Of a DNA stretch of 64,000 bases, positions 557-18,432 are shown in pieces. The stretch is from assembly GCA_963815115.1 (NCBI GenBank), contig CAWFFN010000009.1, positions 1,472,001 through 1,536,000 of the forward strand, written 5' to 3'. The number at the start of each line of letters is the position of its first letter. The stretch's first letter is position 1. The position numbers were made by a program, and so were the translations under genes. Under the pieces are notes generated by a model that ran no database searches, had not been told where the DNA came from, and worked only from the letters and a program-made list of their open reading frames with translations. This stretch comes from an uncultured delta proteobacterium (GTDB lineage: Bacteria > Desulfobacterota > Binatia > DP-6).

Positions 557-1537
557 ATGTTCGGGACCCTCGTCACCGCGCGCTCCAACGTCAACGTTGC
601 CCTCGTGAAATACTGGGGGAAGCGCGACGCCTCGCTCAACCTCCCGGCCACGGGCAGCATCTCGCTCACCCTCGACGGCCTGTCGGTCGAGGCCGAGGTC
701 GGCTTCGGCGATGCGTCCACGGACGAGCTGACGATCGACGGCGAGCCCGCGCGAGGTACCGAGCGCGAGCGCCTGGTCGGCTTCCTGGATCTGCTGCGCC
801 ACGAAGCCCGCCGCGTGGATCGCGCACGCGTCTCGACCCGCAGCCGCGTACCGCGCGGTGCCGGCCTGGCGTCGTCGGCGGCGGCGTTCGCGGCGCTGGC
901 GCTCGCCGGCAGCCGGGCGGCGGGCCTGCGGCTCGAGCCGCCGGCGCTCTCCGCGCTCGCGCGGCGCGGCTCGGGCTCGGCTGCACGCTCGATCTTCGGC
1001 GGGTTCGTCGAGTGGCACCGCGGCGAGCGGTACGATGGCACCGACTCGATCGCCGAGCCGCTCCTCGCGCCGAGCGACTGGGACCTGCGCATCGTCGTCG
1101 CGCTCGCCAGCACGGAGGCGAAAGCCGTGTCGTCGCGCGACGGCATGGCGCGCGCCGCGGCGTCGCCGTTCTACCCCGCCTGGGTCGCGGGTGCCGAGCG
1201 CGATCTCGCCGAGGCTCGCGCCGCCGTGCGGACGCGCGATCTGGAAGCGCTCGGCCAGCTGGCGGAGCACAGCGCGCTCAAGATGCACGCGGTCGGCCTG
1301 GCGGCGCGGCCGCCGCTGCTCTACTGGCGCGGCGCCACCGTCGACTGCGTGCAGCGGGTGTGGGCACTGCGTGCCGAGGGCATCCCGGCGTTCGTCACCA
1401 TCGACGCCGGCCCGCAGGTGAAGGTTCTGTGCACGCCGGCCAACGCGGCGAAGGTCGCGCAGGCACTCGGGGACGTCCCGGGCGTGGCGCGCGTGATCAC
1501 CTGTGCGCCGGGCAGCGGCGCCGAGGTGCTCGCGTGA
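557..1537 (+). CDS. mvaD: Diphosphomevalonate decarboxylase
   Basis: NVALVKYWGKRD, GLASSAA GHMP loop, RRGSGSAARS, TIDAGPQVK. Confidence 0.95.
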   Translation: MFGTLVTARSNVNVALVKYWGKRDASLNLPATGSISLTLDGLSVEAEVGFGDASTDELTIDGEPARGTERERLVGFLDLLRHEARRVDRARVSTRSRVPRGAGLASSAAAFAALALAGSRAAGLRLEPPALSALARRGSGSAARSIFGGFVEWHRGERYDGTDSIAEPLLAPSDWDLRIVVALASTEAKAVSSRDGMARAAASPFYPAWVAGAERDLAEARAAVRTRDLEALGQLAEHSALKMHAVGLAARPPLLYWRGATVDCVQRVWALRAEGIPAFVTIDAGPQVKVLCTPANAAKVAQALGDVPGVARVITCAPGSGAEVLA

Positions 1538-2493
1538 GCGTGACGGCACGCGCGCCCGGCAAGCTCTTCATCACCGGCGAGTGGGCCGTGCTGCGCGGCG
1601 CGCCGGCGCTGGTCGCCGCCGTGGACCGTCATGCGTCGGTCACGGTCGAGCCTGGCGGCGACGGGATCGTCGTCGAGTCGGTCGCGGAAGGTCGCAGCGA
1701 TCATCTGGATGGCGCAGGGGACGGCCCGCTGCCCGGTGGTGATGCGGGCGCGGTGCTGGCCGCGCTGCGCCAGCGCCGCGAGCCGCCACGCGCGCTCCGC
1801 ATCGCGGTCGACTCGTGCGCGTTCCTCGTCGGAGAGCGCAAGCTCGGGCTCGGTCGCAGTGCGGCGACGCTGGTGGCTGCGAGCGCGGCGCTGGCGGCGG
1901 GGGAGACCCCCGCGCAGCTCCTCGGTCGCGCACTCGAGGCGAACGCGCTCTTCCAGGCAGGGCAGGGCAGCGGGGCCGACGTGGCCGCGGCGGTGCACGG
2001 TGGCGTCGTGGAGGTCCGGCGCAGCGCGGACGGGCTCGCCGTCGCCTCGCGAACGCTCCCGGCGGGCCTCCATCTCGTCGCCGGCTGGACGGGGACGCCC
2101 GCGCCGACGACGCCGCTGCTGGTGCGCTTCGCCACCTCGCCGACGCCGGCCGCCCTGGCCGACCTCTCGGCGGCCGCCGTCGCGGCAGCCGACGCCGTGA
2201 CACGGGGCGACGCGGCGACGCTGCTCGACGCGGTGGAGCGCTCCGCGGCGCTCCTGGTCCGGCTCGGCGCCGAGCTGGATCTGCCGCTGGTGACGCCGGC
2301 GCTCGCCACGCTGGTGCGTGTCGCGAACCGCGTCGGCGCCGCGGCGAAGCCGTCGGGCGCCGGAGCGGGCGATTGCGGCATCGCCCTGGCCACCTCGCTG
2401 GCGCAGGCGGCGGCGGTGCGGGCCGCGTGGCAGGACGCCGGCATCCTGCCATTGCCGGTACGGGTGGCGGAGCGCGGGGTGAGCGTTGGCTGA
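1534..2493 (+). CDS. Phosphomevalonate kinase (GHMP family)
   Basis: GTGA overlap with the mvaD stop. Motifs APGKLFITGEWAVL, KLGLGRSAA, GSGADVAA, KPSGAGAGDCG. Confidence 0.85.
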   Translation: MSVTARAPGKLFITGEWAVLRGAPALVAAVDRHASVTVEPGGDGIVVESVAEGRSDHLDGAGDGPLPGGDAGAVLAALRQRREPPRALRIAVDSCAFLVGERKLGLGRSAATLVAASAALAAGETPAQLLGRALEANALFQAGQGSGADVAAAVHGGVVEVRRSADGLAVASRTLPAGLHLVAGWTGTPAPTTPLLVRFATSPTPAALADLSAAAVAAADAVTRGDAATLLDAVERSAALLVRLGAELDLPLVTPALATLVRVANRVGAAAKPSGAGAGDCGIALATSLAQAAAVRAAWQDAGILPLPVRVAERGVSVG

Positions 2494-3548
2494 GCCGATC
2501 GCCGAGCGCAAGCGCGCGCACCTCGATCTGTGCGAGCAGGCCGAGGTGGAGTACGCGCGCAAGACGACGCTCTTGGAGGAGGTCGAGCTGGTGCACGACG
2601 CGCTCCCCGAGCTGGCCCTCGCCGAGGTCGACGTCTCGACCGGACTGCTCGGCAAGCGACTGCGTGCGCCCCTGCTCATCACGGGCATGACGGGGGGGAC
2701 GAGCGAGGCGGCCGACATCAACCAGGCGCTGGCGCAGGTCGCCGAGGAGCACGGCATCGCCTTCGGCCTCGGCTCGCAGCGCGCCATGCAGCGGGCGCCG
2801 GAGCTCGAGTACACCTTCGCGGTGCGCACCCACGCGCCGACGGCGCTGGTCCTCGCCAACCTCGGCATGGTGCAGGCGGGCGCGCTACGGTCGTCGGAGG
2901 TCGAGCGCCTGGTGCAGCGGGTCGGCGCCGATGCCGTCTGCATCCATCTCAACCCGGCGCAGGAGCTCATCCAGCCCGGCGGCGACCGCGACTTCCGCGG
3001 CGGTCTCGCCACCTTCGCTCGCCTGGTCCGCGACCTGCCGGTGTCCGTGGTGGCGAAGGAGACCGGCTGCGGCATCTCGCGCGACGTCGCGGCGCGCCTG
3101 CGCGACGTCGGGGTGCGGACCATCGACGTCTCCGGCGCCGGCGGCACGTCATGGGTCAAGGTCGAGACGCTGCGTGCGGACGCCGCGGGGCGCGACCTGG
3201 GCGAGGAGTTTGCCGACTGGGGCATTCCCACGGGCGCGGCGGTGGCCGGGTTGCGTGGCGTCGGCGTGGAGGTCATCGCCAGCGGCGGCATCCGCAGCGG
3301 GCTCGACGTGGCCAAGGCGGTGGCGCTGGGTGCCCGCGGGGCGGGCGTTGCGCTGCCCGTGTTCCGGGCCTATCGCGAGGGTGGCGTGGTCGCGGCGGGG
3401 CGCTTCGTCGAGCGGCTGGTGGACGGACTGCGGACCGCGATGGTGCTCACCGGCTCGCGCGACCTCGAGGCCCTGGGGCGAACGCCGCTTGTGATAGGGC
3501 GTCGCTTGCGAGATTGGCTCACCCGTTGGCCGACCCCGGAGGAGGTGC

Positions 3549-3556
<8 letters not shown>
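2486..3556 (+). CDS. fni: Type 2 isopentenyl-diphosphate delta-isomerase (FMN)
   Basis: RKxxH start, ITGMTGG, GSQR, HLNPAQE, KETGCG, GAGGTSW, SGGIRSG. Confidence 0.95.
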
Positions 3557-4832
<1,276 letters not shown>

Positions 4833-4861
4833 CCCGCGCGGCCCCGGCGGGCCAGGGAGCG

Positions 4862-5767
4862 ATGCACGCCAGCGGGCGCGCGGGAGGCAAGGTGATCCTC
4901 CTGGGCGAGCACGTCGTGGTCTACGGCCGGCCGGCGGTGGCGGCGGGGCTGCCGATCGGGCTCGAGGTCGAGGTGACCGAGGGGCAGGGCCCGGTCATCA
5001 CGAGCGACGATCCCGCGCTGGCGGCCGACCCGCGGCCCCGCGAGCTGATCGTCCAGGCGGCGGCGCTGACCGGCCTCGATCCCACGCGCCTCGTGGTGCG
5101 GGTGCGCTCCGAGCTGCCGCCGGGACGCGGGCTCGGCAGCTCGGCCGCGCTGGCGGTGGCGGTGCTGCGCGCCCTCGCGACGCTCGCCGGCAGACGACTC
5201 GACCGGGCCGCGGAGCTCGACGGTGGCCGCCGGCTGGAAACCGTCTTCCACGGCACGCCGTCGGGCATCGACCCTGCGGCCGCCGCGCTCGGCACCTGCT
5301 TCCGGTTCGTGCGCGGCGAGCCGCCGGTGGTGACGCCGCTGCGGCCGGCAATGCCCCTGCCCATCGTCGTCGCGTTCGGCGATCGACCGCGCAGCACCGG
5401 CGCCGCGGTCGGTGGCCTGCGTGCGCGCTGGGAGGCGGACCAGGCGCGCTACGAGGCGCTCTTCGACGCCGTCGGCGAGGTGGTCGAGCGCGGCGCCGCG
5501 GCGGTGGAGGCCGGCGATCTCGTCACCCTCGGGCGGGCCTTCGACGACAATCAGGCGCTGCTGGAGACGCTCGGCGTCTCCTCGGACGAGATCGCCCGGC
5601 TGGTCGCTGCGGCTCGGCGCGCGGGTGCGCTGGGGGCGAAGCTCACCGGCGGCGGCGCGGGCGGCGCGGTGATCGCGCTCGCGCCCGACCCGGAAGCGGT
5701 GGCGGGACGGCTCGAGCACGAGGGATGGACGGCGCTGGTGACTCGCGTCGGCGAGCAGACGCCCTAG
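4862..5767 (+). CDS. mvk: Mevalonate kinase
   Basis: GKVILLGEHVVVYG, PGRGLGSSAA, HGTPSGID, AKLTGGGAGG. ATG at 4862 follows a GGGAG. Confidence 0.92.
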   Translation: MHASGRAGGKVILLGEHVVVYGRPAVAAGLPIGLEVEVTEGQGPVITSDDPALAADPRPRELIVQAAALTGLDPTRLVVRVRSELPPGRGLGSSAALAVAVLRALATLAGRRLDRAAELDGGRRLETVFHGTPSGIDPAAAALGTCFRFVRGEPPVVTPLRPAMPLPIVVAFGDRPRSTGAAVGGLRARWEADQARYEALFDAVGEVVERGAAAVEAGDLVTLGRAFDDNQALLETLGVSSDEIARLVAAARRAGALGAKLTGGGAGGAVIALAPDPEAVAGRLEHEGWTALVTRVGEQTP

Positions 5768-6969
5768 CTGCCCGCGCGCCTCCGCAGCGCCGTCGACAGC
5801 TCCCCGGCACATTCCCGGCCGAGCCGGTGCCGCGCCGCCGGCTGCCTGGCGAGACGCGCGGCCTGACGCCACGCACGAGCCACCTTCTTGTCGTTGACGC
5901 TCGCGCTCGCGAGCAGCCGGCAGCACCGCCCGACCGCCGCCGTGAGCGCTCGCGGCGCCGGCTCGCCGGTTGGGCACGACGACGTCGCGCGCCGCGGCCA
6001 GCTGCAGCTCGCCCCGACGGTGGCCGATTCGATCGCCGGGGCGGACGTCGTTCGGCCGGCTCCCCAGCGCTCGACGAAGGCGGCGGCGACCGCGGCCGCG
6101 TTGTCTGCCGCGAGCCGGTAGTAGTCGAAGAAGACCCTGAAATCCTCGTTGTCGGAGACCGCGCGGAAGGCGATGAACGGCACGCCGCGCGCACCCGCCT
6201 CGCGGGCCACCGCGGCGGTCTCCATGTCGTTGGCGACGATCGTCTCGCCGGCCTGCGCGGCCGCTGGGGGGGCACCGGCCGCCGCGGTCACGCCCGTCGC
6301 GACGTCGCAGCCGAACACCGGATCACGACCGGGAGTGCACGGGTCGGGCCGGCCGCCGAAGGGATCGTCGCTCTCGCCCGTGCCGCCGACGATCACCGTG
6401 GGCAGGTCGGGCAGGCAGACGATCGGACCCGGCGGATCCGGCGGCACCGCCCCGCAGCGCTCCAGGATGACGTTCGGCGCGATCGCGCTCGCGACCTCCA
6501 GGAGCGAGGGATCGGCCGCGTGCGCCGTGCCGTCGTTCTCGAGCCACGTCGCCGGCACCGTGACGTCACCGATACCGTGGGACGCGGAGCCGGCAACGCC
6601 GGAGACCACGACGGCGGCGACGTCGAAGCGATCGAGCACGAGACGGGTGGTGGCGCCCGCGTTGCCGAGGCCGATGCCGAGGAGCCCGAGCACGACGGGG
6701 ACGCCGCCCAGCGTGCCGACGCGCAGCACGCGATCCCCGACCACGAGCGTCTCGTGGACGGTCGCGTGGGTGAGGACCGATTCCAGCTCCGCCGGGAAGG
6801 CGGAGAAGACGGCGAGCATCGGCGGCGAGCCGCAGGCGCTCTCCTCGATCGCGCACAGGCCGTCGCCGAAGTCGGCAGGCGGTGCCGGGGCGGCGCCCGC
6901 GACCGCGGGGACGAGCGCGACGGCGAGCGTTGCGGCCAGCGCGGCGATGCGCCGGGTCACGGGCTCCAT
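5764..6969 (-). CDS. Secreted MTA/SAH nucleosidase (PNP/UDP phosphorylase family) with Cys-rich insertions
   Basis: Signal peptide (RRIAALAATLAVALVPAVAGA). Motifs SAFPAE, GIGLGNA, SGVAG, IGDV, DMETAAVA, PFIAFRAVSD. Confidence 0.75.
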   Translation of the reverse strand: MEPVTRRIAALAATLAVALVPAVAGAAPAPPADFGDGLCAIEESACGSPPMLAVFSAFPAELESVLTHATVHETLVVGDRVLRVGTLGGVPVVLGLLGIGLGNAGATTRLVLDRFDVAAVVVSGVAGSASHGIGDVTVPATWLENDGTAHAADPSLLEVASAIAPNVILERCGAVPPDPPGPIVCLPDLPTVIVGGTGESDDPFGGRPDPCTPGRDPVFGCDVATGVTAAAGAPPAAAQAGETIVANDMETAAVAREAGARGVPFIAFRAVSDNEDFRVFFDYYRLAADNAAAVAAAFVERWGAGRTTSAPAIESATVGASCSWPRRATSSCPTGEPAPRALTAAVGRCCRLLASASVNDKKVARAWRQAARLARQPAARHRLGRECAGELSTALRRRAGS

Positions 6970-7124
6970 ATGGGGTGACCATACCGTAGACCGGCGCGGC
7001 CGTCGCGGGAAATTCACGGCGCGAGTCGTCGCACCGCATGCGCCATGGCGAGCCCGAGGACGCCTCGCGTCACCGGCCGGGCCCGCGGCGGTGGTGGAGG
7101 GTCGCAGGACCGTGATATCGAGGG

Positions 7125-9086
7125 ATGCCTGTGTCGGGGATGCCGGTGGAGGGTCGCATGGGCGCCAGCGAAGTCGTCGAGCAGCAGGGGCTCGCAGCGC
7201 GTGTCGACGAGAGCATCGCGCGCGCGTCGCGAGCGCTCCTCTCCGTCCAGTGCCCGGCGGGCTACTGGCAGGGTGTCGTCGAGGGGGCGGCCCACCTCGA
7301 GGCCGAGTACGTGTTCGCGAACCGCCTGCTCGGACGCCAGCGTTCCGAGCAGGACCGTCTCATGGCAGAGCGCTTGCTCGCGCTGCAGCAGGACGATGGC
7401 GGATGGGCGCTGGCGCCGGGCCAGCCGGGTCATCTGTCGACGAGCGTCCAGGCCTACCTGGCGCTGAAGCTGGCGGGGCTCGGAACCGGCGAGCCGGCCC
7501 TCGCTCGCGCCCGCGACCTGATCCTCTCGCGCGGCGGCCTGGCCGCGTCGGGCATGTTCACGCGTTTCTGGCTCGCCTGCTTCGGGCAGTTCCCCTGGTC
7601 GGGCGTGCCGCGCGTGCCGGTCGAGATGATGCTCCTGCCCAGCTGGGCGCCGCTGAACATCTACCATCTCGCCAGCTGGACGCGGGCCACGCTGGTGCCG
7701 TTCGCGCTGCTGATGGTCCACCGGCCCGAGGCACGCGTGCCGGCGGAAGCCGACCTCCGCGAGCTGTGGCTGCGCGAGCCCACTCCCGCCGACCTGTCGT
7801 TCGCGCGCTCGCCGTCGCTGATCTCGTGGCGCAACGTGTTCCTGGCGCTCGACCGCGCGATCGCGCTCCTCGGCCGCGTGCCCTGGAAGCCGTTGCGCCG
7901 CCGGGCCGTGGCCCGCGCGATCGAGTGGCTGCTGCGCCACGAGGACGCGGCCGGCCAGTGGGCGGGAGCCCAGCCCGCCACCGTGCGATCCGTGCTCGCG
8001 CTGCATGCCATCGGCTTCGCGGCCGATCATCCGACCATCGTGCGCGGCCTGCAGGGCCTCGACGATCTCCTGGTGCAGCGCGGCGACCAGCTCGCCTACC
8101 AGCCGTGCATGGCTCCGACCTGGGACACCGTGAACGCGATGCGGGCCCTGCTCGACGCCGGTCTCGAGCCGCAGCATCCGGCACTGGCCCGCGCGGGCGA
8201 ATGGCTCGTCGGACGGCAGGCGGTACGGCCGGGGGACTGGGCGGTGCACAATCCGGAGCTCGATCCGGGCGGCTGGGCGGCCGAGCCCGCGAACGACTGG
8301 TATCCCAGCGTCGACGTCTCGGCCCTCGCGGTCTCCGTGCTGCAGCAGCTGCCCATCCGAGCGACGCACGCCGGCAGGCGTGCGCTGGCTCACGGCCTCG
8401 ACTGGACGCTCGGCATGCAGGGACGCGACGGCGGCTGGGCGGCGTTCGACACCGACAACGAGTCGCGGTTCCTGGACGCGGTCCCGTTCCCGGACCTCGA
8501 GGGCGTCACCGACCCGCCCAGCGCCGACACCACCGGGCGCGTGCTGGCAGTCGCCGCCGAGCACGGCTTCGGGCTCGGCCTGGGCCGCATCCGGCGGGGC
8601 GCCGAGTTCCTTCGCCGCACCCAGCACGCGGATGGCAGCTGGTCGGGGCGCTGGGGCGTCAACGCCCTCCACGGCACGTGGCTCGCGCTCGCCGGACTCG
8701 CCGCCGCGGGCGAGGACCCGCGCGCGCCGTACGTGCAGCGCGCGGTCGCGTGGCTCGCCGCACGACAGAACGGCGATGGCGGCTGGGGCGAGAGCGTGGC
8801 CTCCTACGAGGACGACGCGCGGCGAGGGTGCGGCGACAGTACCCCGTCGCAGACGGCATGGGCGCTGATGGGTCTCCTCGCTGCCGCCGGAGCCGACCAT
8901 CCGGCCGTGTCGCGCGGAGTCGAGCACCTGGTACGCAGCCAGGACGCCGACGGCCGCTGGGAAGAGGTCGCGTTCACGGCCACGGCCGTTCCGCGGCGCG
9001 CCTACCTGCGCTACGAGCTGTTCTCGCTGCACTACCCGCTCCGCGCCCTCGGCCAGTACCGGGCTCGCGTCGCCTCCACGGCATGA
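7125..9086 (+). CDS. Squalene-hopene cyclase homologue with divergent active site (start may be ATG 7158)
   Basis: Six QW-type repeats (QQDDGGW, QGRDGGW, QHADGSW, QNGDGGW, QDADGRW and others), PTWDT, GRWGVN, STPSQTAWAL, YLRY. The DXDD motif reads SVDV. Confidence 0.9.
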   Translation: MPVSGMPVEGRMGASEVVEQQGLAARVDESIARASRALLSVQCPAGYWQGVVEGAAHLEAEYVFANRLLGRQRSEQDRLMAERLLALQQDDGGWALAPGQPGHLSTSVQAYLALKLAGLGTGEPALARARDLILSRGGLAASGMFTRFWLACFGQFPWSGVPRVPVEMMLLPSWAPLNIYHLASWTRATLVPFALLMVHRPEARVPAEADLRELWLREPTPADLSFARSPSLISWRNVFLALDRAIALLGRVPWKPLRRRAVARAIEWLLRHEDAAGQWAGAQPATVRSVLALHAIGFAADHPTIVRGLQGLDDLLVQRGDQLAYQPCMAPTWDTVNAMRALLDAGLEPQHPALARAGEWLVGRQAVRPGDWAVHNPELDPGGWAAEPANDWYPSVDVSALAVSVLQQLPIRATHAGRRALAHGLDWTLGMQGRDGGWAAFDTDNESRFLDAVPFPDLEGVTDPPSADTTGRVLAVAAEHGFGLGLGRIRRGAEFLRRTQHADGSWSGRWGVNALHGTWLALAGLAAAGEDPRAPYVQRAVAWLAARQNGDGGWGESVASYEDDARRGCGDSTPSQTAWALMGLLAAAGADHPAVSRGVEHLVRSQDADGRWEEVAFTATAVPRRAYLRYELFSLHYPLRALGQYRARVASTA

Positions 9087-9946
9087 CGGCCGCCGTCGCG
9101 CAGGTCGAGCGGGCGTACGCCGAGTGCGTCCGCATCGCCCGCCACTACGAGAACTTCCCGATCGGCTCCTTCCTCCTGCCACGCAGGCTGCGGCGCGATC
9201 TCGCGGCGGTGTACGCCTTCGCGCGCGGCGGCGACGACCTGGCGGACGAGGGCGACCCCGCCGGCCGGCTCGCGGCGCTGGCCGCGTACGAGGAACGGCT
9301 GGTCGCCTGCGTGGCCGATCCGCCGGCCGTGGACGACCCGGTCTTCCTGGCCCTCGGCCACACCATCGCGAAGCACGATCTCGGCATCGAGCCGTTCCGC
9401 AACCTGCTCACGGCGTTCCGGCGCGACGCGGCCGGCGAGACCCGGACCATGGCGACCTTCGCGGATCTGGTCGAGTACTGCAGCTGCTCGGCCAATCCGG
9501 TCGGCCGCATCGTGCTCGGGCTGTTCGGATATCGCGACCCCGAGCGGCAGGCGCGCTCCGACGAGATCTGCACGGCCCTGCAGTTCACCAACTGCTGGCA
9601 GGACGTGGCCGGGGACCTCGAGCGGGGCCGCGTCTACCTGCCCCAGGAAGACCTCGATCGCTACGCGGGGAGCCGGGATGCCCTCTCCAGCGGCCGCCTG
9701 ACGCCCGGCTTCGCCGCTCTCATGGCGTTCGAGGTGGAGCGCGCGCGGAGCTGGTTCGCACGCGGGCTCGGTCTGGCGACCCTGGTGCACGGCCGGCTGC
9801 GACGCGAGGTCCGGTTGTTCGCTCACGGCGGGCTGGCGGTGCTCGCCCGCATCGAGGCGTCGGGCTACGACGTCTTCACCCGTCGGCCCACCCTCCGCCG
9901 CGCCGACCTGCTGCGGCTCGTGCTGCGCGAGGTGTGGGCCGCCTGA
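9083..9946 (+). CDS. hpnC: Squalene synthase-family HpnC
   Basis: HYENFP, VYAFAR, DDLADE, SANPVGR, LQFTNCWQDV, GRVYLP. ATGA overlap with the cyclase stop. Confidence 0.88.
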   Translation: MTAAVAQVERAYAECVRIARHYENFPIGSFLLPRRLRRDLAAVYAFARGGDDLADEGDPAGRLAALAAYEERLVACVADPPAVDDPVFLALGHTIAKHDLGIEPFRNLLTAFRRDAAGETRTMATFADLVEYCSCSANPVGRIVLGLFGYRDPERQARSDEICTALQFTNCWQDVAGDLERGRVYLPQEDLDRYAGSRDALSSGRLTPGFAALMAFEVERARSWFARGLGLATLVHGRLRREVRLFAHGGLAVLARIEASGYDVFTRRPTLRRADLLRLVLREVWAA

Positions 9947-9972: not shown

Positions 9973-11226
9973 GTGACACCGATTCCGTCCACTGACCTTC
10001 GCATCGACGACATCCAGCTCGGCTCGGCCGAGCTGTGGGCCCGCCCGGACCGCGACGGCATCTTCGCGAAGCTGCGCGCGGAGCGGCCGGTCTCGTTCCA
10101 CGAGGAGCCGGAGTTCATCGGCTTTCCCAAGGGGCCGGGCTTCTGGTCCGTCGTGCGCCACGACGACGTGCTGCGGGTCTCGCGCGACTCGGAGACCTTC
10201 GTCTCGGGCCGGGGCTCCAACATCGGCGACCTGCCCGTCGAGCTGCTCGAGTTCTTCGGCTCGATGATCAACATGGACGCGCCGCGCCACACCAAGCTGC
10301 GCAAGCTCGTCAGCCGTGGCTTCACGCCCCGCATGGTGGCCGGGCTCGAGACGGCGGTGCGCCAGCAAGCGCGCCACATCGTGCAGACCGTCGCGCCAAA
10401 GGGTCGCTGCGACTTCGTCGAGGAGATCGCCGCCGCGCTCCCGCTGAAGATCATCTGCGACATGATGGGGATCCCCGAGGCCGACACGCGGCGCATGTTC
10501 GAGCTGTCGAACATCATCCTCGGCGTCGGCGACCCGGAGTACGGCACGACCATGGAGACGCTGATGGCCGCCGCGGTCGAGCTGTCGCAGTACGCGCAGG
10601 CGCTGGGCGAGGAGCGCGCCCAGACGCCGCGCGGCGACATCACCAGCGTGCTCATGCAGGCCGACGTCGACGGCGATCGGCTGACGACGGCCGAGTTCGC
10701 GTCGTTCTTCATCCTGCTCGTGGTGGCGGGCAACGAGACCACGCGCAATGCCATCAGCCATGGCATGAAGGCGCTCACCGACTTCCCCGAGCAGCGCCGC
10801 GCCTGGATGAGCGACTTCGAGGGCGTGGCCCCGGCGGCGGTGGAGGAGATCGTGCGCTGGGCGACGCCGGTGATCCACTTCCGGCGAACGGCGACGCGCG
10901 ACGTCGAGATCGCGGGCCAGAGCATCCCTGCCGGCGACAAGATCGTCATGTGGTACAGCTCGGCGAACCGGGACGAGCGCGCCTTCGACGATCCCTACCG
11001 CTTCGACGTGCGCCGGGAGCCGAACGAGCACGTCGGCTTCGGCGGGGGCGGCGCGCATTTCTGTCTGGGCGCCAACCTGGCCCGGCGCGAGATCAAGGTG
11101 ATGTTCGAGGAGCTTTTCCGCACGCTGCCCGACATCCACGTCGTGGGCGAGCCCGACCGCCTCTTCTCGGCGTTCATCCACGGCATCAAGCGCATGCGCG
11201 TGGAGTGGACGCCGCCCCGCGGCTGA
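9973..11226 (+). CDS. Cytochrome P450, CYP124-like (methyl-branched lipid/isoprenoid omega-hydroxylase type)
   Basis: AGNETT I-helix, EEIVR, SANRDE, heme motif GFGGGGAHFCLGANLARREI. Confidence 0.9.
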   Translation: MTPIPSTDLRIDDIQLGSAELWARPDRDGIFAKLRAERPVSFHEEPEFIGFPKGPGFWSVVRHDDVLRVSRDSETFVSGRGSNIGDLPVELLEFFGSMINMDAPRHTKLRKLVSRGFTPRMVAGLETAVRQQARHIVQTVAPKGRCDFVEEIAAALPLKIICDMMGIPEADTRRMFELSNIILGVGDPEYGTTMETLMAAAVELSQYAQALGEERAQTPRGDITSVLMQADVDGDRLTTAEFASFFILLVVAGNETTRNAISHGMKALTDFPEQRRAWMSDFEGVAPAAVEEIVRWATPVIHFRRTATRDVEIAGQSIPAGDKIVMWYSSANRDERAFDDPYRFDVRREPNEHVGFGGGGAHFCLGANLARREIKVMFEELFRTLPDIHVVGEPDRLFSAFIHGIKRMRVEWTPPRG

Positions 11227-11244: not shown

Positions 11245-11877
11245 ATGGACTTTCGCGAGGTCATCGAGACGACGCCGACCTGCCGCTTCTACCGGCCGGA
11301 TCCGGTGCCGGACGACGTGCTGCGCCGGGTGCTCGATGCCGCCCGCTGGGCGCCGACGGGCGGCAACCGCCAGGGCGTGCGCTTCATCGTGGTGCGCGAC
11401 CCCGGCCGGCGGCGGCAGCTGAAGGCATGGTACCTTCCGCTGTGGGAGCAGTACGTGTCGCGCGCGACCTCGCGTGACGGTGCACCGATGCCGCGGCTGC
11501 TCGCGAACGCCGACCACTTCGCGCACCATCTCGACGAGGTGCCGGTGCTGATCGTGGTGTGCGCGCAGCTCGGCGACCTGATGGCGACCGACCGCCATCT
11601 CGACCGCCTCTCGCTCGTCGGCGGCGCGTCGGTCTATCCCGCGGTGCAGAACCTGCTGCTGGCGGCGCGGGCCGAGGGCCTCGGGACCGCGCTCACCACG
11701 CTGCTCTGCGCCCTCGAGCCACAGGTGAAGGAGCTGCTCCAAATTCCCGACGGCATCGCGACGGCGGCCACGGTCGCCCTCGGCCATCCCGCCCGCGGCT
11801 TCCCGAAGCGGCTGGCACGCCGGCCGCTCGAGGAATTCTGCTTCGCGGACGCCTACGGAGCGCCGCTCTTCGCCTGA
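11245..11877 (+). CDS. Nitroreductase family protein
   Basis: APTGGNRQ, GASVYPAVQNLLLAARAEGLG. Strong AAGGAGG RBS. Confidence 0.88.
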   Translation: MDFREVIETTPTCRFYRPDPVPDDVLRRVLDAARWAPTGGNRQGVRFIVVRDPGRRRQLKAWYLPLWEQYVSRATSRDGAPMPRLLANADHFAHHLDEVPVLIVVCAQLGDLMATDRHLDRLSLVGGASVYPAVQNLLLAARAEGLGTALTTLLCALEPQVKELLQIPDGIATAATVALGHPARGFPKRLARRPLEEFCFADAYGAPLFA

Positions 11878-13606: not shown

Positions 13607-16600
13607 GTGATACTGCACGGACGGCGTGTGGAAGCGATGAGACGGTTCGCGCTTCTCGAGTGTACGCGGGTGCGTGCGGCGACACGGTCAGGGGGCTCAG
13701 GGGGCCGCTCGAAGAAGAGGATCGTGGAAAGGCCTGTAGCACGGGCTGGCCGAGTGCGCGCCGCCGGAGCAGCTGCTCGGCGTGCGATGTCCGCGAGAGG
13801 CGCCCAGGGAGCCCCCGGCCAGGTGACCCCCGCGATCGTGGGTCTGGGTTCTTCGGCAGGAGGTCTCGACGCCCTCAAGCGGTTCTTCAACAGCATGCCA
13901 TCCGACAGCGGCATGGCCTTCGTGCTGGTGCAGCACCTGGACCCGACGCACCCGAGCCTGATCGCGGAGCTGCTCGGCAGGTGCACCGCGATGTCCGTGG
14001 TGCAGGTGGACGCCGACACGCCGGTCGAGGCCGATCACGTCTATTGCATGCCGCCGGGCCGATACCTGAGCATCAGCGGACGGACGTTGCGGCTGACCGG
14101 GCCGGTCGAGACCGGCAGCGTCCGCATGCCGATCGACTTCTTCCTGCGCTCCCTGGGCGCGGACGTGCAGGAGCGGGGGATCGGGATCGTTCTCTCCGGA
14201 ACCGGAACCGACGGCACGCTCGGCCTGCGAGCGATCAAGGCGGCTGGAGGGTTGGCCATCGCGCAGGATCCCGTGACCGCCGAGCACGATGGCATGCCGC
14301 GCAGCGCGATCGCTGACGGAGCGATCGACCATGTCCTGTCCCCCGAGCAGATGCCTGACGTCCTGGCCGAGTTCCTGCGGCACCCCTATGCCCGAGGTCC
14401 GAGCGGCCTCCCCGCGGCAGAAGACATCGGCCGCGATCGTCTGGATGACGTCCTGGGGGTCCTGCTCGATCGGACGGACCTCGACTTCCGCAGCTACAAG
14501 CGAAGCACGCTCGAGCGTCGCATCGGCCGCCGCATGGGCTTGAAGCACATCGAGCGCACGGTCGACTACGTGCGACTCCTGACGCGTGACCCCGCGGAGG
14601 CCGCGGCGCTGCGCGACGATCTTCTGATCAGCGTCACGAGCTTCTTCCGCGACCCCGAGGCATGGCGGGTTCTGCAGGAGCAGGTGCTTCGTCCAATGAT
14701 TGCACGCACTGACGTCCATGCGGCGCTCCGCGTGTGGGTGCCCGGCTGCGCAACCGGGGAGGAGGCATACTCCATCGCCATGCTCCTCATCGAGGAGCGG
14801 GAAGCCGCGGCGAAGAGCTGCCCCATCCAGATCTTCGCCTCGGACGTGGATGCGGGCGCGCTCGAGGTGGGCCGGGCTGGTCTCTACCCGGGGAGCATCG
14901 TCGCCGACGTGCCGGCGCACCGGCGCCGCCGGTTCTTCATAGACGAGAGGCACGGCGCTCGGGTCGGCAAGGGGCTGCGCGAGTCGGTGGTGTTCGCCCG
15001 GCAGAACCTCCTGGCGGACCCGCCGTTCTCCAAGCTCGACCTCGTCACCTGCCGCAACCTCCTCATGTACCTCGAGCCGGAGGCCCAGCGGAGGATCCTC
15101 TCGCTGCTGCACTTCGCACTCGTCGAGGGGGGGCACCTGCTTCTGGGGACCGCGGAGACGATCGGCCAGCAGGAAGACCTGTTCGCGGTGGTCTCGAAGC
15201 ACTGGCGCATCTACCGACGGATCGGACCGCCGCGGTACGACAAGGTACGGTTCCCGGTCATGGATGAATTCGCAGTCGGGCGGCGGATCGATCCGTCACC
15301 CGGCCACCCGGGCGTCGGGCGGCTCGGGGCGCTGGCCCAGCAGGCGCTGCTCGAGCGCTTCGTCCCGGCGTCCGTGCTGATCAACCGCAGGTACGAGATC
15401 GTGTACTTCGCGGGACCGACCGAGGACTATCTGGTCCAGCCGACCGGCGTCCCCACCCAGGACCTGATGTCCCGGCTGCGCGAGGGCCTGCCGACCAAGC
15501 TGCGCGGCGCCATCCGCAGGGCGATCCGCGAGGGCGAGCGTCCGGTCGTCATTGCCGTCCGAGTCCGGCGCGGAGACGCGTGGCAGCGGGTGAAGGTGAC
15601 GGTCGAACCCCTCGCGGGAATCGGCGAGATGGAGGGGTTGCTGCTGATTTCCTTCGTGGACGGACCCCGGGCGGCGCCTCCGGCGCTCCATTCCGCGAAT
15701 GCCGCAGGCGAGCACGACGAACCGGTCACCCGAGCGCTCGAGGACGAGCTCAAGGCCACACGGGAGGAGCTGCAGGGCAGCGTCGGCGACCTGGAGAGCT
15801 CCAATGAAGAGCTGAAGGTCGTCAACGAAGAAGTGATGTCGGTCAACGAGGAGCTGCGCTCCTCCAACGAGGAGCTCGAGACCTCCAAGGAGGAGCTCCA
15901 GTCGCTCAACGAGGAGCTGAGCACCGTCAACACGCAGCTCGAGGACAAGGTCAACGAGCTGGAGCAGGCGAACAACGACCTGGACAATCTGCTGACCAGC
16001 ACCAACATCGCAACGATTTTCCTCGACACCAGCTTCCACGTACGGCGCTTCACGCCGGCCGCGGCCAGGCTGTTCCACATGACGCCCGCGGACGTCGGGC
16101 GGCAGTTGGGCGACGTCGTCGGGCGGGGTATCGACCCCGATCTCCCGCAGGACAGCGAGGCCGTGCTCGCTCGCCTGGGGTCGATCAGCAAGGAGGTGCA
16201 GGGGGCGGACGGCCGGTCGTACGTCCGGCAGGTGCTACCCTATCGCACGCGCGACGACCGGATCGAGGGCGTGGTGATCACCTTCTCGGACGTCGCGGCA
16301 GAGGCGCTCCAGGAGGCACGGCTCTACGCCGAGGCCATCGTGAACACGGTCCGGGAACCCCTGCTGGTGCTCGACTCCGAATTGTGCGTCCTGTCGGCGA
16401 ATCGGTCTTTCTATCATACCTTCCGGCTGTCGCCGGAAGAGACCGTCAACCGTGCGCTCTACGAGCTGAACGATCGCGAGCTGGACGTCCCGAGGCTCCG
16501 AGCGCTGCTCGGCGTGATTCTGCCGGACCGGGGTGGCCTGACCGACTTCGAACTCGAGCACGACTTTGCGAGGATCGGGCGACGGATCATGCTGCTGAAC

Positions 16601-17824
16601 GCGCGCATCCTGGCGCGGGGCGGCGACCGCCCGGACCTGATTCTTCTCGCCATGGAGGACATCACCGAGCGCAAGCGTGCCGAGCACGCGCTGCGCGAGA
16701 GCGAGGCCATGACGCGGGCCGGCATCGAGGCCGCCGTGGACGGCGTCGTCGCGACGGACGAACGCGGTACCGTCCTCTCCTTCAACCCGGCCGCCGAGCT
16801 CATCTTCGGCTACTCCGGCGGAGAGGTGATCGGGCAGAACGTCGGGATGCTGGTGCCACCATCCTACCTGGACGAGTACCAGCGGTCCGTGGCGGCCTTC
16901 CTCGAGACGCCAGACCGTCACGTCATCGGCATCGCGCAGGAGGTCCACGGCCGGCACAAGAACGGCACCACCTTCCCGATGGACCTGAACCTCAGCGAGT
17001 TCGACGACGGCTCAGGTCGCCGGTTCGTCGCAACGATCCGCGACATCACCGAGCGCAAGTGGGCGGAGGAAGAGGTCCGGAGGCGCCAGGCCGAGCTGGC
17101 CCACGTGCTCCGGATCGCCACCATCGAGCGACTGGCAGCCTCCCTGGCGCACGAGCTCAACCAGCCTCTCACCGCGATCGCCAACGAGGTGGAAGCGTGT
17201 GCGACCTACGTCCGGTCGGGCAAGCGCGAGCCCCGCCGCCTGCTGTCGTTGCTCGAGCGCGCGGGAGCGGAGGCGCTGCGCGCCGGCGAGATCGTGCACC
17301 ACCTGCGAGACTTCGTGCTGCGGAGCGAGCCGCGGATCGAATCGGCTGACCTCTGCGAGGTGATCCGCAATGCGACCCGCTGGCTGGCGCGTGAGATGGA
17401 GGACGAGCGGATCACGCTGCGGCTCGATCTGGCACCGCAGGGGCTGCTGGTTCACGCCGATCGCATCCAGATCGAGCAGGTGTTCGTGAATCTCGTGCAG
17501 AACGCCATCGACGCGATCCGCGACGGGGGGAGCGAGACGAGAGAGATCCGCGTACGGACGTCGCGGGGCGAGGACGGCACGGCCGAGGTGCTCGTCGACG
17601 ATACCGGCATCGGCTTTGCCGCCGGGGCCACCGCGCGATTGTACGAACCCTTCTTCACCACCAAGCCGCAAGGTATGGGAATGGGCCTGGCGATCAGCCG
17701 CACCATCGTGGAGCTGCACCGCGGCCGGCTCTCGGTCGAGCCCCGGGAGTCGGGGCTCGGTACCACGGTGCGACTGGTCCTGCCCGCCGGCGCCGTGTCG
17801 GCAGCGGGCGAGAGATCGGGATGA
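13607..17824 (+). CDS. CheB-CheR-coiled-coil-3xPAS-histidine kinase fusion (true start probably later, e.g. ~13787)
   Basis: CheB: GSSAGG, QHL, SGTGTDG. CheR: VTSFFRD, WVPGCATGEEAYS, CRNLLMY. SNEEL coiled coil. PAS ends DITERK twice. HELNQPL, NLVQNA, PFFTTK, GMGMGL. Confidence 0.9.
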   Translation: MILHGRRVEAMRRFALLECTRVRAATRSGGSGGRSKKRIVERPVARAGRVRAAGAAARRAMSARGAQGAPGQVTPAIVGLGSSAGGLDALKRFFNSMPSDSGMAFVLVQHLDPTHPSLIAELLGRCTAMSVVQVDADTPVEADHVYCMPPGRYLSISGRTLRLTGPVETGSVRMPIDFFLRSLGADVQERGIGIVLSGTGTDGTLGLRAIKAAGGLAIAQDPVTAEHDGMPRSAIADGAIDHVLSPEQMPDVLAEFLRHPYARGPSGLPAAEDIGRDRLDDVLGVLLDRTDLDFRSYKRSTLERRIGRRMGLKHIERTVDYVRLLTRDPAEAAALRDDLLISVTSFFRDPEAWRVLQEQVLRPMIARTDVHAALRVWVPGCATGEEAYSIAMLLIEEREAAAKSCPIQIFASDVDAGALEVGRAGLYPGSIVADVPAHRRRRFFIDERHGARVGKGLRESVVFARQNLLADPPFSKLDLVTCRNLLMYLEPEAQRRILSLLHFALVEGGHLLLGTAETIGQQEDLFAVVSKHWRIYRRIGPPRYDKVRFPVMDEFAVGRRIDPSPGHPGVGRLGALAQQALLERFVPASVLINRRYEIVYFAGPTEDYLVQPTGVPTQDLMSRLREGLPTKLRGAIRRAIREGERPVVIAVRVRRGDAWQRVKVTVEPLAGIGEMEGLLLISFVDGPRAAPPALHSANAAGEHDEPVTRALEDELKATREELQGSVGDLESSNEELKVVNEEVMSVNEELRSSNEELETSKEELQSLNEELSTVNTQLEDKVNELEQANNDLDNLLTSTNIATIFLDTSFHVRRFTPAAARLFHMTPADVGRQLGDVVGRGIDPDLPQDSEAVLARLGSISKEVQGADGRSYVRQVLPYRTRDDRIEGVVITFSDVAAEALQEARLYAEAIVNTVREPLLVLDSELCVLSANRSFYHTFRLSPEETVNRALYELNDRELDVPRLRALLGVILPDRGGLTDFELEHDFARIGRRIMLLNARILARGGDRPDLILLAMEDITERKRAEHALRESEAMTRAGIEAAVDGVVATDERGTVLSFNPAAELIFGYSGGEVIGQNVGMLVPPSYLDEYQRSVAAFLETPDRHVIGIAQEVHGRHKNGTTFPMDLNLSEFDDGSGRRFVATIRDITERKWAEEEVRRRQAELAHVLRIATIERLAASLAHELNQPLTAIANEVEACATYVRSGKREPRRLLSLLERAGAEALRAGEIVHHLRDFVLRSEPRIESADLCEVIRNATRWLAREMEDERITLRLDLAPQGLLVHADRIQIEQVFVNLVQNAIDAIRDGGSETREIRVRTSRGEDGTAEVLVDDTGIGFAAGATARLYEPFFTTKPQGMGMGLAISRTIVELHRGRLSVEPRESGLGTTVRLVLPAGAVSAAGERSG

Positions 17825-18432
17825 CGGCAGTTCCGACGGTCTTCGTGGTCGACGACAATCCGGGCGTCCGCAAGTCGCTGCAGGCGCTCGTCGAGGCGGA
17901 GGGTCTGGCGGTCGCCACGTACGCGTCCGCCGCGGAATTCCTCGAGGCCTGGGACGTACAGCGACCTGGCTGCCTCGTCCTCGACGTCCGTCTTCGGGGG
18001 GATAGCGGTCTGAATCTGCAGGACGAGCTTCGCAGGCGGAACGCCACGCTGCCGATCATCGTGATGACCGGGTATGCCGACGTTCCCACCTCCGTGCGTG
18101 CGCTCAAGGGCGGTGCCATCGACTTCCTCCGGAAGCCCGTGCCCCCGAAGCAGTTGATTGCACGGATTCGCGAGGCCATCGACGTCGATCGGCGCACTCG
18201 TGACGCGGGAGCGCAACGCGCCGCCGTGACGGATCGAATCGCCCAGCTCACACCGCGCGAGCGCGAGGTCATGGAGCTGCTGGCCGTGGGGAACAGTTCC
18301 AAGGCAATCGCCGTGGCGCTAGACATCAGCGTGCGCACGGTGGAGAGCCATCGCCGGACCGTGCTCCGGAAGCTGGGGGTCTCCTCGGCGGCGCAGCTGG
18401 CGCGTGCCGTCGCTCGGAGCCAGCTGCCGTAG
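17821..18432 (+). CDS. FixJ-type response regulator (REC + LuxR HTH)
   Basis: VVDD, CLVLDV, MTG, DFLRKP, LTPREREV...ISVRTVESHR. Confidence 0.92.
   Translation: MTAVPTVFVVDDNPGVRKSLQALVEAEGLAVATYASAAEFLEAWDVQRPGCLVLDVRLRGDSGLNLQDELRRRNATLPIIVMTGYADVPTSVRALKGGAIDFLRKPVPPKQLIARIREAIDVDRRTRDAGAQRAAVTDRIAQLTPREREVMELLAVGNSSKAIAVALDISVRTVESHRRTVLRKLGVSSAAQLARAVARSQLP

Follow-up and report, generated by a model that had tools for sequence, protein, structure and literature searches.

A squalene-hopene cyclase paralogue of Binatia with a rebuilt, clade-conserved active site, probably no longer a maker of hopanoids

In oxidosqualene cyclases (OSCs) a lone aspartate with non-acidic flanks (VxDCTA) opens an epoxide, an arrangement that is insufficient for the protonation of an alkene. 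Squalene demands greater acidity of a squalene-hopene cyclase (SHC), as stated in the excerpted text of McShea et al. 2025 (PMC12414744), and engineered variants of the A. acidocaldarius SHC (AaSHC; AacSHC below, where it serves as the numbering reference) illustrate what follows from losing it: the D377C mutant converts squalene to the monocyclic 3-deoxyachilleol with strongly decreased activity (excerpts of PMC6127371, which cite Sato and Hoshino 1999 for the D377C/N mutants), and weaker cation-pi donors at F365 and F605 give prematurely cyclised products (excerpts of PMC11467907). Reduced acid motifs do work on activated or different substrates, as in the epoxide-opening polyprenyl cyclases with [E/D]SA[E/N] and in MstE with DxD, and the largest cyclase phylogeny excluded sequences without DxD by design (both points from the excerpts of PMC12414744), so that the class of SHCs without DxDD is under-described. 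Our literature search, whose coverage stopped short of subscription-only papers, turned up no account of SHC paralogues without DxDD, nor of hopanoid cyclases from Binatia. Here we describe such a paralogue, which we call SHCv, encoded in a 64,000-nucleotide stretch (the window; GC 70.8%) of the 6.9 Mb, 100% complete genome of an uncultured soil bacterium of the class Binatia. Judging from its sequence, SHCv has probably either been repurposed as an enzyme or become a non-catalytic relative of SHC, and is unlikely to make hopanoids.

The gene and the parts of it that matter most here are as follows.

7125-9086, plus strand: SHCv, the variant squalene-hopene cyclase paralogue, likely starting at ATG 7158 (assigned from family profiles, a PDB match, its clade and the GC content of third codon positions, GC3)
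8280-8282, plus strand: A386, standing at AacSHC F365, a cation-pi residue that is thereby lost (HMMER alignment)
8307-8324, plus strand: SVDVSA replacing DxDDTA, in which only the central aspartate D397 (AacSHC D376) remains
8988-9023, plus strand: segment V622 to F633, with F601V, H/D604R and F605A, Y609 kept, and Y612F (HMMER alignment)

The open reading frame (ORF) from the ATG at 7125 translates without a stop into 653 amino acids with a GC3 of 0.90 in frame, and a GGAGGG at 7146-7151 makes the following ATG at 7158 the likelier start, which yields a form of 642 amino acids (P0002). SHCv has the two-domain architecture of SHCs, with matches to PF13249 (SQHop_cyclase_N, 353.8 bits) and PF13243 (SQHop_cyclase_C, 384.7 bits), scores 642.5 bits on the SHC equivalog TIGR01507 (cut-off 431.1), and aligns with the A. 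acidocaldarius enzyme (1gsz) end-to-end and without large gaps (E 2.7e-147). Its QW repeats number seven by the Q..G.W pattern, compared with eight in a canonical paralogue of the same genome, the unmatched repeat reading HEDAAGQW. Thus, the earlier note on this DNA was correct about the unbroken frame and right about the QW repeats for all but this one. Family, QW repeats, D376, D313, D447, W169, W312 and W489 are all shared with AacSHC (1gsz/2sqc; TIGR01507) and with the canonical Binatia SHCs.

The resemblance ends at the active site. We mapped residues by HMMER alignment to AacSHC 1gsz, indexed by script, and found that the proton-donor motif DxDD(T/S)A is gone from SHCv: D374 corresponds to S395, V375 to V396, D376 to D397, D377 to V398, T378 to S399 and A379 to A400. 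Further replacements are I261 by A282, Y495 by H516, F601 by V622 (nucleotide 8988), F605 by A626 (nucleotide 9000) and Y612 by F633, and the tryptophans W169, W312 and W489 are retained as W185, W333 and W510. Six of the ten aromatic and aliphatic cavity residues that guide the formation of five rings (I261, F365, Y495, F601, F605, Y609, Y612, W169, W312 and W489) are thereby replaced. These substitutions, including F365A, the retained D376 and the three tryptophans had all been read off by hand in the earlier note, and the alignment reproduced them residue by residue and position by position. Two additional changes, Y420F and H451R, lie outside the anomaly because canonical Binatia SHCs share both, and E93Q is unique to SHCv (one of 23 full-length variants). 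Unlike AacSHC and the canonical SHCs, then, SHCv has SVDV, six replaced cavity residues and a rebuilt loop at 430-447, and belongs to a clade in which conservation of the cavity has been lost.

This pattern of altered residues is not due to chance, since it recurs. In a comparison set of 120 rows (SHCv, its canonical paralogue and 118 database matches), 27 rows, SHCv included, carry x-[V/I/T]-[D/E/G/R]-[V/A]-S-A together with F601V/I, F605S/A/T and F493A/G, and in 90 others the motif is D[VT]DD[ST][AS] and the signature never varies (W I Q P W F ... F Y G F F L Y Y); the remaining three read DVPTSA, SVPGSA and, in one case, a gap. All told, the variants comprise at least 27 clusters of Binatia proteins. 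Two maximum-likelihood trees, both from quick searches, recovered the 26-27 variant rows as monophyletic (SH-aLRT 100), nested within a Binatia SHC group that holds canonical operon-linked SHCs, such as that of locus L006, and the second SHC copies of the variant-bearing genomes fell in a separate Binatia SHC group, with L007 and L011. The alignment and phylogeny that the earlier note had proposed thus returned a conserved monophyletic clade defined by an SxDV-type motif and small cavity residues.

Losses of the acid motif are also seen outside this clade. Further independent ones occur in the same Binatia SHC group, namely DVPTSA (L081, L104 and P0085; aspartate to proline) and SVPGSA (P0098). 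Among the 150 nearest representatives of 50%-identity clusters (P0122-P0271), 124 have DxDD, 23 have other motifs (for example NVHDSA, DVAVTA, DIGNTA and GQLPSG, many with degenerate cavity signatures) and three are gapped. With 23 of 150 nearest representatives lacking DxDD, acid-less SHC homologues appear to be a wider, little-studied phenomenon, and, going by these sequences, they seem common in metagenomes.

A single aspartate flanked by non-acidic residues (S-V-D-V) is reminiscent of the OSCs, a resemblance that is mechanistic only: unlike an OSC, SHCv branches inside the Binatia SHCs, scores 268.8 bits on the OSC model TIGR03463, whose cut-off is 851, and resides in a host without the squalene epoxidase family PF08491, which was not found in the 100%-complete genome (alternative epoxidases were not searched for). 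The absence of PF08491 weakens 2,3-oxidosqualene as a candidate substrate, and within the scope of that search we disfavour it.

A second, canonical shc, which the earlier note had advised looking for, lies 110 kb from SHCv (L001:1477-3408; G000:C9:1590520-1592406). It scores 742 bits, has DTDDTA and the complete canonical cavity signature, and is 53% identical to SHCv in a gap-free alignment. Its cluster runs HMG-CoA reductase - SHC - HMG-CoA synthase - HpnD - HpnE - HpnH, and the pathway is split between the two loci: HMG-CoA synthase (HMGS), HpnD, HpnE and HpnH are found solely with the canonical SHC (G000:C9:1589-1597 kb; L001, L032, L034 and L042), MDD, PMK, IDI2, MK and HpnC solely with the variant (window 557-9946), and HMG-CoA reductase in both mevalonate/squalene clusters. 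That SHCv is an ordinary SHC which still forms hopene or diplopterol is scarcely credible. The TIGR01507 score, D376, W169, W312, W489 and the seven QW repeats are what one would expect of such an enzyme; the loss of D374, D377, F365, F601, F605, Y495, Y612 and I261, at which all 90 canonical rows are invariant, is not, and a canonical SHC is already present 110 kb away. Since replacing just one of D377, F365 and F605 is enough to cut cyclisation short in AaSHC (in the excerpts cited above), hopene synthesis by SHCv is very unlikely, and so the earlier note's doubt that SHCv makes hopene is supported by the lost acids, the rebuilt cavity and the canonical second copy alike.

We then counted SHC copies in 25 genomes of one GTDB family, the host included. 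Eight carry the variant (genera g1, g6 and g13), and all eight have a second SHC, which is canonical in seven and frameshifted, with DTDDTA, in one. Twelve have a single canonical SHC, and in one more (89% complete) the canonical copy alone was seen. No SHC was detected in three, two of which gave at most a weak family match, the third being 58% complete and searched with a protein query only. The last, G017 (100% complete), has as its sole SHC-like ORF a very degenerate one (ETDLTG, W312R, W489A). A single SHC above the cut-off was found in each of five further Binatia genomes whose operon SHC is canonical.

Two of these genomes deserve a separate remark. The frameshifted second SHC belongs to a variant-bearing metagenome-assembled genome (G001:C1:418690-420544; L057-L059), where it is broken into at least six pieces, and may be an artefact of assembly error or a real pseudogene. 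The degenerate ORF of G017 (L172:8854-10665, on G017:C53) has a 12-amino-acid deletion and an end branch of 0.88 and directly follows a mevalonate operon. No HpnC, HpnD or CrtB family match was found in this 100%-complete genome, which therefore holds a cyclase homologue without a squalene synthase.

Synteny indicates which of the two copies is the resident one. Relatives with a single canonical SHC have the array mevalonate genes - SHC - HMG-CoA synthase - HpnC - HpnD, and SHCv occupies this very SHC slot, the one held by the canonical SHC of L006, which makes it orthologous by position to the resident cyclase. The HMG-CoA reductase of the second cluster shares 66-69% identity with its counterparts in L007 and L011 and 56% with the window's own, which suggests that the second hopanoid cluster came in by acquisition or represents an ancient paralogous segment. 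The variant locus has lost HpnD and HpnE, and its HMGS has diverged strongly in genus g6 and been deleted in genus g1; the variant itself has been retained across three genera while these redundant neighbours were degraded or deleted. A plausible course of events is that the resident operon-linked SHC was released from hopene synthesis once the second cluster had brought a canonical SHC, and that it was then kept by selection in a new role.

To assess selection we used dN/dS by the NG86 method, which understates dS in a genome of 71% GC, where dS is compressed by codon bias, and values were therefore interpreted only relative to those of other genes from the same genome pair; related genomes are moreover non-independent samples. 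Over seven genome pairs SHCv had a dN/dS of 0.18-0.23. In the same pairs the mevalonate genes gave 0.10-0.32, HpnC 0.12-0.22, a neighbouring cytochrome P450 0.16-0.24 and HisS 0.28-0.30, and the dN of SHCv was 1.0-1.85 times that of the canonical copy. A relaxed gene was available as a control, namely the HMGS-like gene of L009 and L012, with a dN of 0.26 and a dN/dS of 0.36 where SHCv had a dN of 0.091. Because its dN/dS equals that of the neighbouring mevalonate genes, SHCv is not a pseudogene, and because the dN of the control is far higher it does not evolve like a decaying gene; the dN/dS check suggested in the earlier note thus returned purifying selection.

The diverged HMGS homologues that supply this control follow the variant in genus g6 (L009:11929-13026, L012:11857-12918 and L014:8234-9295). 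They score 27-29 bits on Pfam, compared with 95-101 in L006, are 37% identical to the other HMGS of the genome, and still have an open reading frame.

These results bear directly on whether SHCv is a slowly decaying relic, a redundant copy en route to loss that stays open because high-GC genomes have few stops. The old cluster is indeed eroding, as the fates of HMGS, HpnD and HpnE attest, and G017 retains a very degenerate SHC-like ORF without HpnC, HpnD or CrtB matches. Yet the dN/dS of SHCv, equal to that of neighbouring essential genes, largely refutes decay, and the remaining evidence points the same way: no frameshift or stop occurs in the variant across eight genomes or at least 27 protein clusters, the clade covers three genera, 17 columns have acquired a new conserved residue (see below), and GC3 in frame is 0.90. 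We consider decay very improbable.

We compared the conservation of sites in 23 full-length variants with that in 88 canonical relatives. The comparison centred on 39 AacSHC positions ascribed to the cavity, the channel and the initiation site. In canonical SHCs these positions have an entropy of 0.135, compared with 0.970 elsewhere (p 9e-12), and are thus seven-fold more conserved. The variants have lost 13 of 33 cavity positions whose conservation among canonical SHCs reaches 95%, as against 39 of 223 other columns so conserved (odds ratio 3.1, p 0.009). Overall, 256 columns reach 95% conservation in canonical SHCs, and 39 of them have switched in the variants; 22 of these hold variable residues, D374, F365, F605, Y609, Y612 and W486 among them, and 17 hold a new conserved residue, one shared by 80% or more of the 23 variants. 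The latter include V174L, F601V/I, H604R, M619R, A435P and A439G (23 of 23 each), D377V (22), F493A (20), and also I441T, E446A, L36V, N39A and M42L. Several of them presumably lie at the initiation site and the channel constriction, and the channel loop 430-447 has been rebuilt and fixed in its new states across the clade.

Of the catalytic acids, two of the three in the motif are lost in all variants but one. D376 is kept in 19 of 23 (Glu replaces it once, Gly twice and Arg once), and none of the 23 has lost D313, D447, W489, Q262, F434 or A419. The earlier note had regarded random substitution among orthologues as the outcome that would tell against a rebuilt site, and the clade presents some of each: the distal cavity positions W312, F365, Y495, Y609 and Y612 do vary freely, and the motif, F601, F493 and the loop 430-447 are fixed anew. 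A separate class of columns, those of apparently gained constraint, was dropped as uninformative, the canonical set being far more diverse than the variant set.

The reading that we tentatively favour, at somewhat less than even probability, is that SHCv is a weak-acid class II cyclase that terminates early or has shifted to another substrate, with catalysis, substrate and product inferred from the sequence. D397 without its two helper aspartates would be a much weaker acid, and small or variable residues stand where aromatic ones would template rings B-E and stabilise them, behind a rebuilt access-channel loop. The enzyme could then halt on squalene once one or two rings have closed, as engineered AaSHC D377C does, or it could take a more easily protonated intermediate of the squalene pathway, for example hydroxysqualene from the coupled HpnC. 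We favour a cyclase because the aspartate and its hydrogen-bond partners are kept, because many of the 17 conserved-new columns lie near the motif and the channel loop, because conservation falls off from proximal to distal positions, and because D377C sets a precedent. Like the D377C/N mutants, going by the excerpts that describe them, SHCv has a neutral residue for the third motif aspartate and keeps D376; unlike these laboratory point mutants with an intact cavity, it occurs in nature, is without D374 too and has many cavity changes, and its activity is a prediction. Its reduced acid motif likewise recalls, by their description in excerpt, the DxDD-less class II cyclases of the [E/D]SA[E/N] type and MstE, which differ in being distant, smaller or single-domain mero- or diterpenoid enzymes of antibiotic-type clusters, SHCv being full-length and set in a mevalonate/squalene context.

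A number of observations weigh against a catalytic SHCv. Loss of D377 alone strongly cuts the activity of AaSHC, and SHCv is without D374 as well. Within the variants the 39 cavity positions have an entropy of 0.751, compared with 0.812 elsewhere (p 0.80), and their distal part is variable (0.96, compared with 0.64 for proximal positions). Arginine, odd for a carbocation chamber, stands at W312 in six of 23 variants and at Y609 in two. D376 is Gly or Arg in the subclade P0014-16 (including locus L005), which is still under selection, with a dN/dS of about 0.3-0.5, and acid-free sister lineages persist too (DVPTSA in P0085, L081 and L104; G017), L081 and L104 giving a dN/dS of 0.21 at 97% identity.

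Much of this is what would be expected of a pseudoenzyme, that is, a non-catalytic, membrane-associated protein that binds squalene or hopanoids or acts as a scaffold or regulator, with HpnC or the canonical SHC as possible partners. We regard this as a serious possibility, if a less probable one than a cyclase. Its cavity positions evolving like average positions, the arginines within the pocket and the absence of two acids from nearly the whole clade all fit such a protein, as does the purifying selection on members and sisters without D376 (NVGVSA, DVRVSA and DVPTSA). The segments that vary most relative to canonical SHCs are the active-site segments, the remaining scaffold being better conserved; each of the eight variant-bearing genomes has another SHC; and the stop codon of SHCv overlaps the start of hpnC. 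On the other hand, the buried aspartate is kept in 19 of 23 variants and D313 and D447 in all, and the 17 conserved-new columns, many near the motif and the 430-447 loop, bespeak a specific ligand or substrate site and not a vacant pocket. The subclade without D376, whose members have the longest paths in their group and have lost the adjacent hpnC, evolves faster, as though something had then been lost.

The neighbouring genes, from the lower mevalonate operon (557-5767, plus strand; profile matches and frame plot) to the end of the apparent SHCv-hpnC-P450 unit, are the following.

557-1537, plus strand: diphosphomevalonate decarboxylase (MDD)
about 1540-2493, plus strand: phosphomevalonate kinase (PMK)
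2486-3556, plus strand: type 2 isopentenyl diphosphate (IPP) isomerase
3549-4832, plus strand: HMG-CoA reductase
about 4880-5767, plus strand: mevalonate kinase
5764-6970, minus strand: PNP_UDP_1 nucleosidase-like protein, secreted, with an N-terminal signal peptide, divergent from SHCv
9083-9946, plus strand: hpnC, hydroxysqualene/squalene synthase HpnC (TIGR03464, 298.8 bits, cut-off 250.45)
9973-11226, plus strand: CYP124-like cytochrome P450, of the methyl-branched lipid omega-hydroxylase type (6t0f/2wm4, E 1.4e-146)
11245-11877, plus strand: nitroreductase-family flavoprotein, the end of the unit

The ATG of hpnC overlaps the SHCv stop (ATGA), and this hpnC is the only one of the genome above the cut-off. 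A CYP124-like P450 lies 3' of the variant in all six loci of the SHCv subclade that have downstream sequence. It is conceivable that the clade, in place of protonating a terminal alkene, ionises the allylic alcohol of hydroxysqualene by way of its single weak aspartate, forms rings in mid-chain within a widened cavity and yields a non-hopanoid triterpenoid whose terminal methyl is oxidised by the P450, a detailed scenario that we consider a long shot. The neighbourhood in fact counts on the opposing side as well. The adjacency of hpnC is ancestral synteny, being present in the canonical relatives (SHC-HMGS-HpnC-HpnD), and orthologues of the P450 (71-73% identity) are sited elsewhere in two genomes with a milder variant and occur also in one genome without any variant SHC; hence neither HpnC nor the P450 proves a functional link, and neighbouring genes lend SHCv function weak support. 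Two ideas lost ground accordingly: hpnC adjacency as evidence of the substrate, the synteny being inherited, and the P450 as a dedicated tailoring enzyme, given its orthologues elsewhere.

SHCv passes the curated SHC equivalog, and so annotation pipelines will call it a squalene-hopene cyclase and shc-based surveys of hopanoid production will count it. If active, its clade would be nature's equivalent of the truncating SHCs engineered for biocatalysis and a possible source of unknown mono- or bicyclic soil triterpenoids, and if the hydroxysqualene scenario were true, a non-hopanoid cyclic triterpenoid would be a new soil biomarker. Either way the locus offers a dated natural experiment, in which a resident cyclase would have become redundant on the arrival of a second cluster, its neighbours decayed and the cyclase itself was kept with a rebuilt active site.

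Two minor features of the window remain. The nucleosidase-like gene at 5764-6970, probably outside the mevalonate/squalene pathway, divides the mevalonate operon from SHCv in this genus; L003 and L005 have it, we did not find it in L004, and the genus g6 loci lack it. Farther along, on the plus strand, 13607-17824 encodes a 1405-amino-acid fusion of CheB methylesterase, CheR methyltransferase, PAS and histidine kinase, which is followed by a LuxR-type response regulator at 17821-18432.

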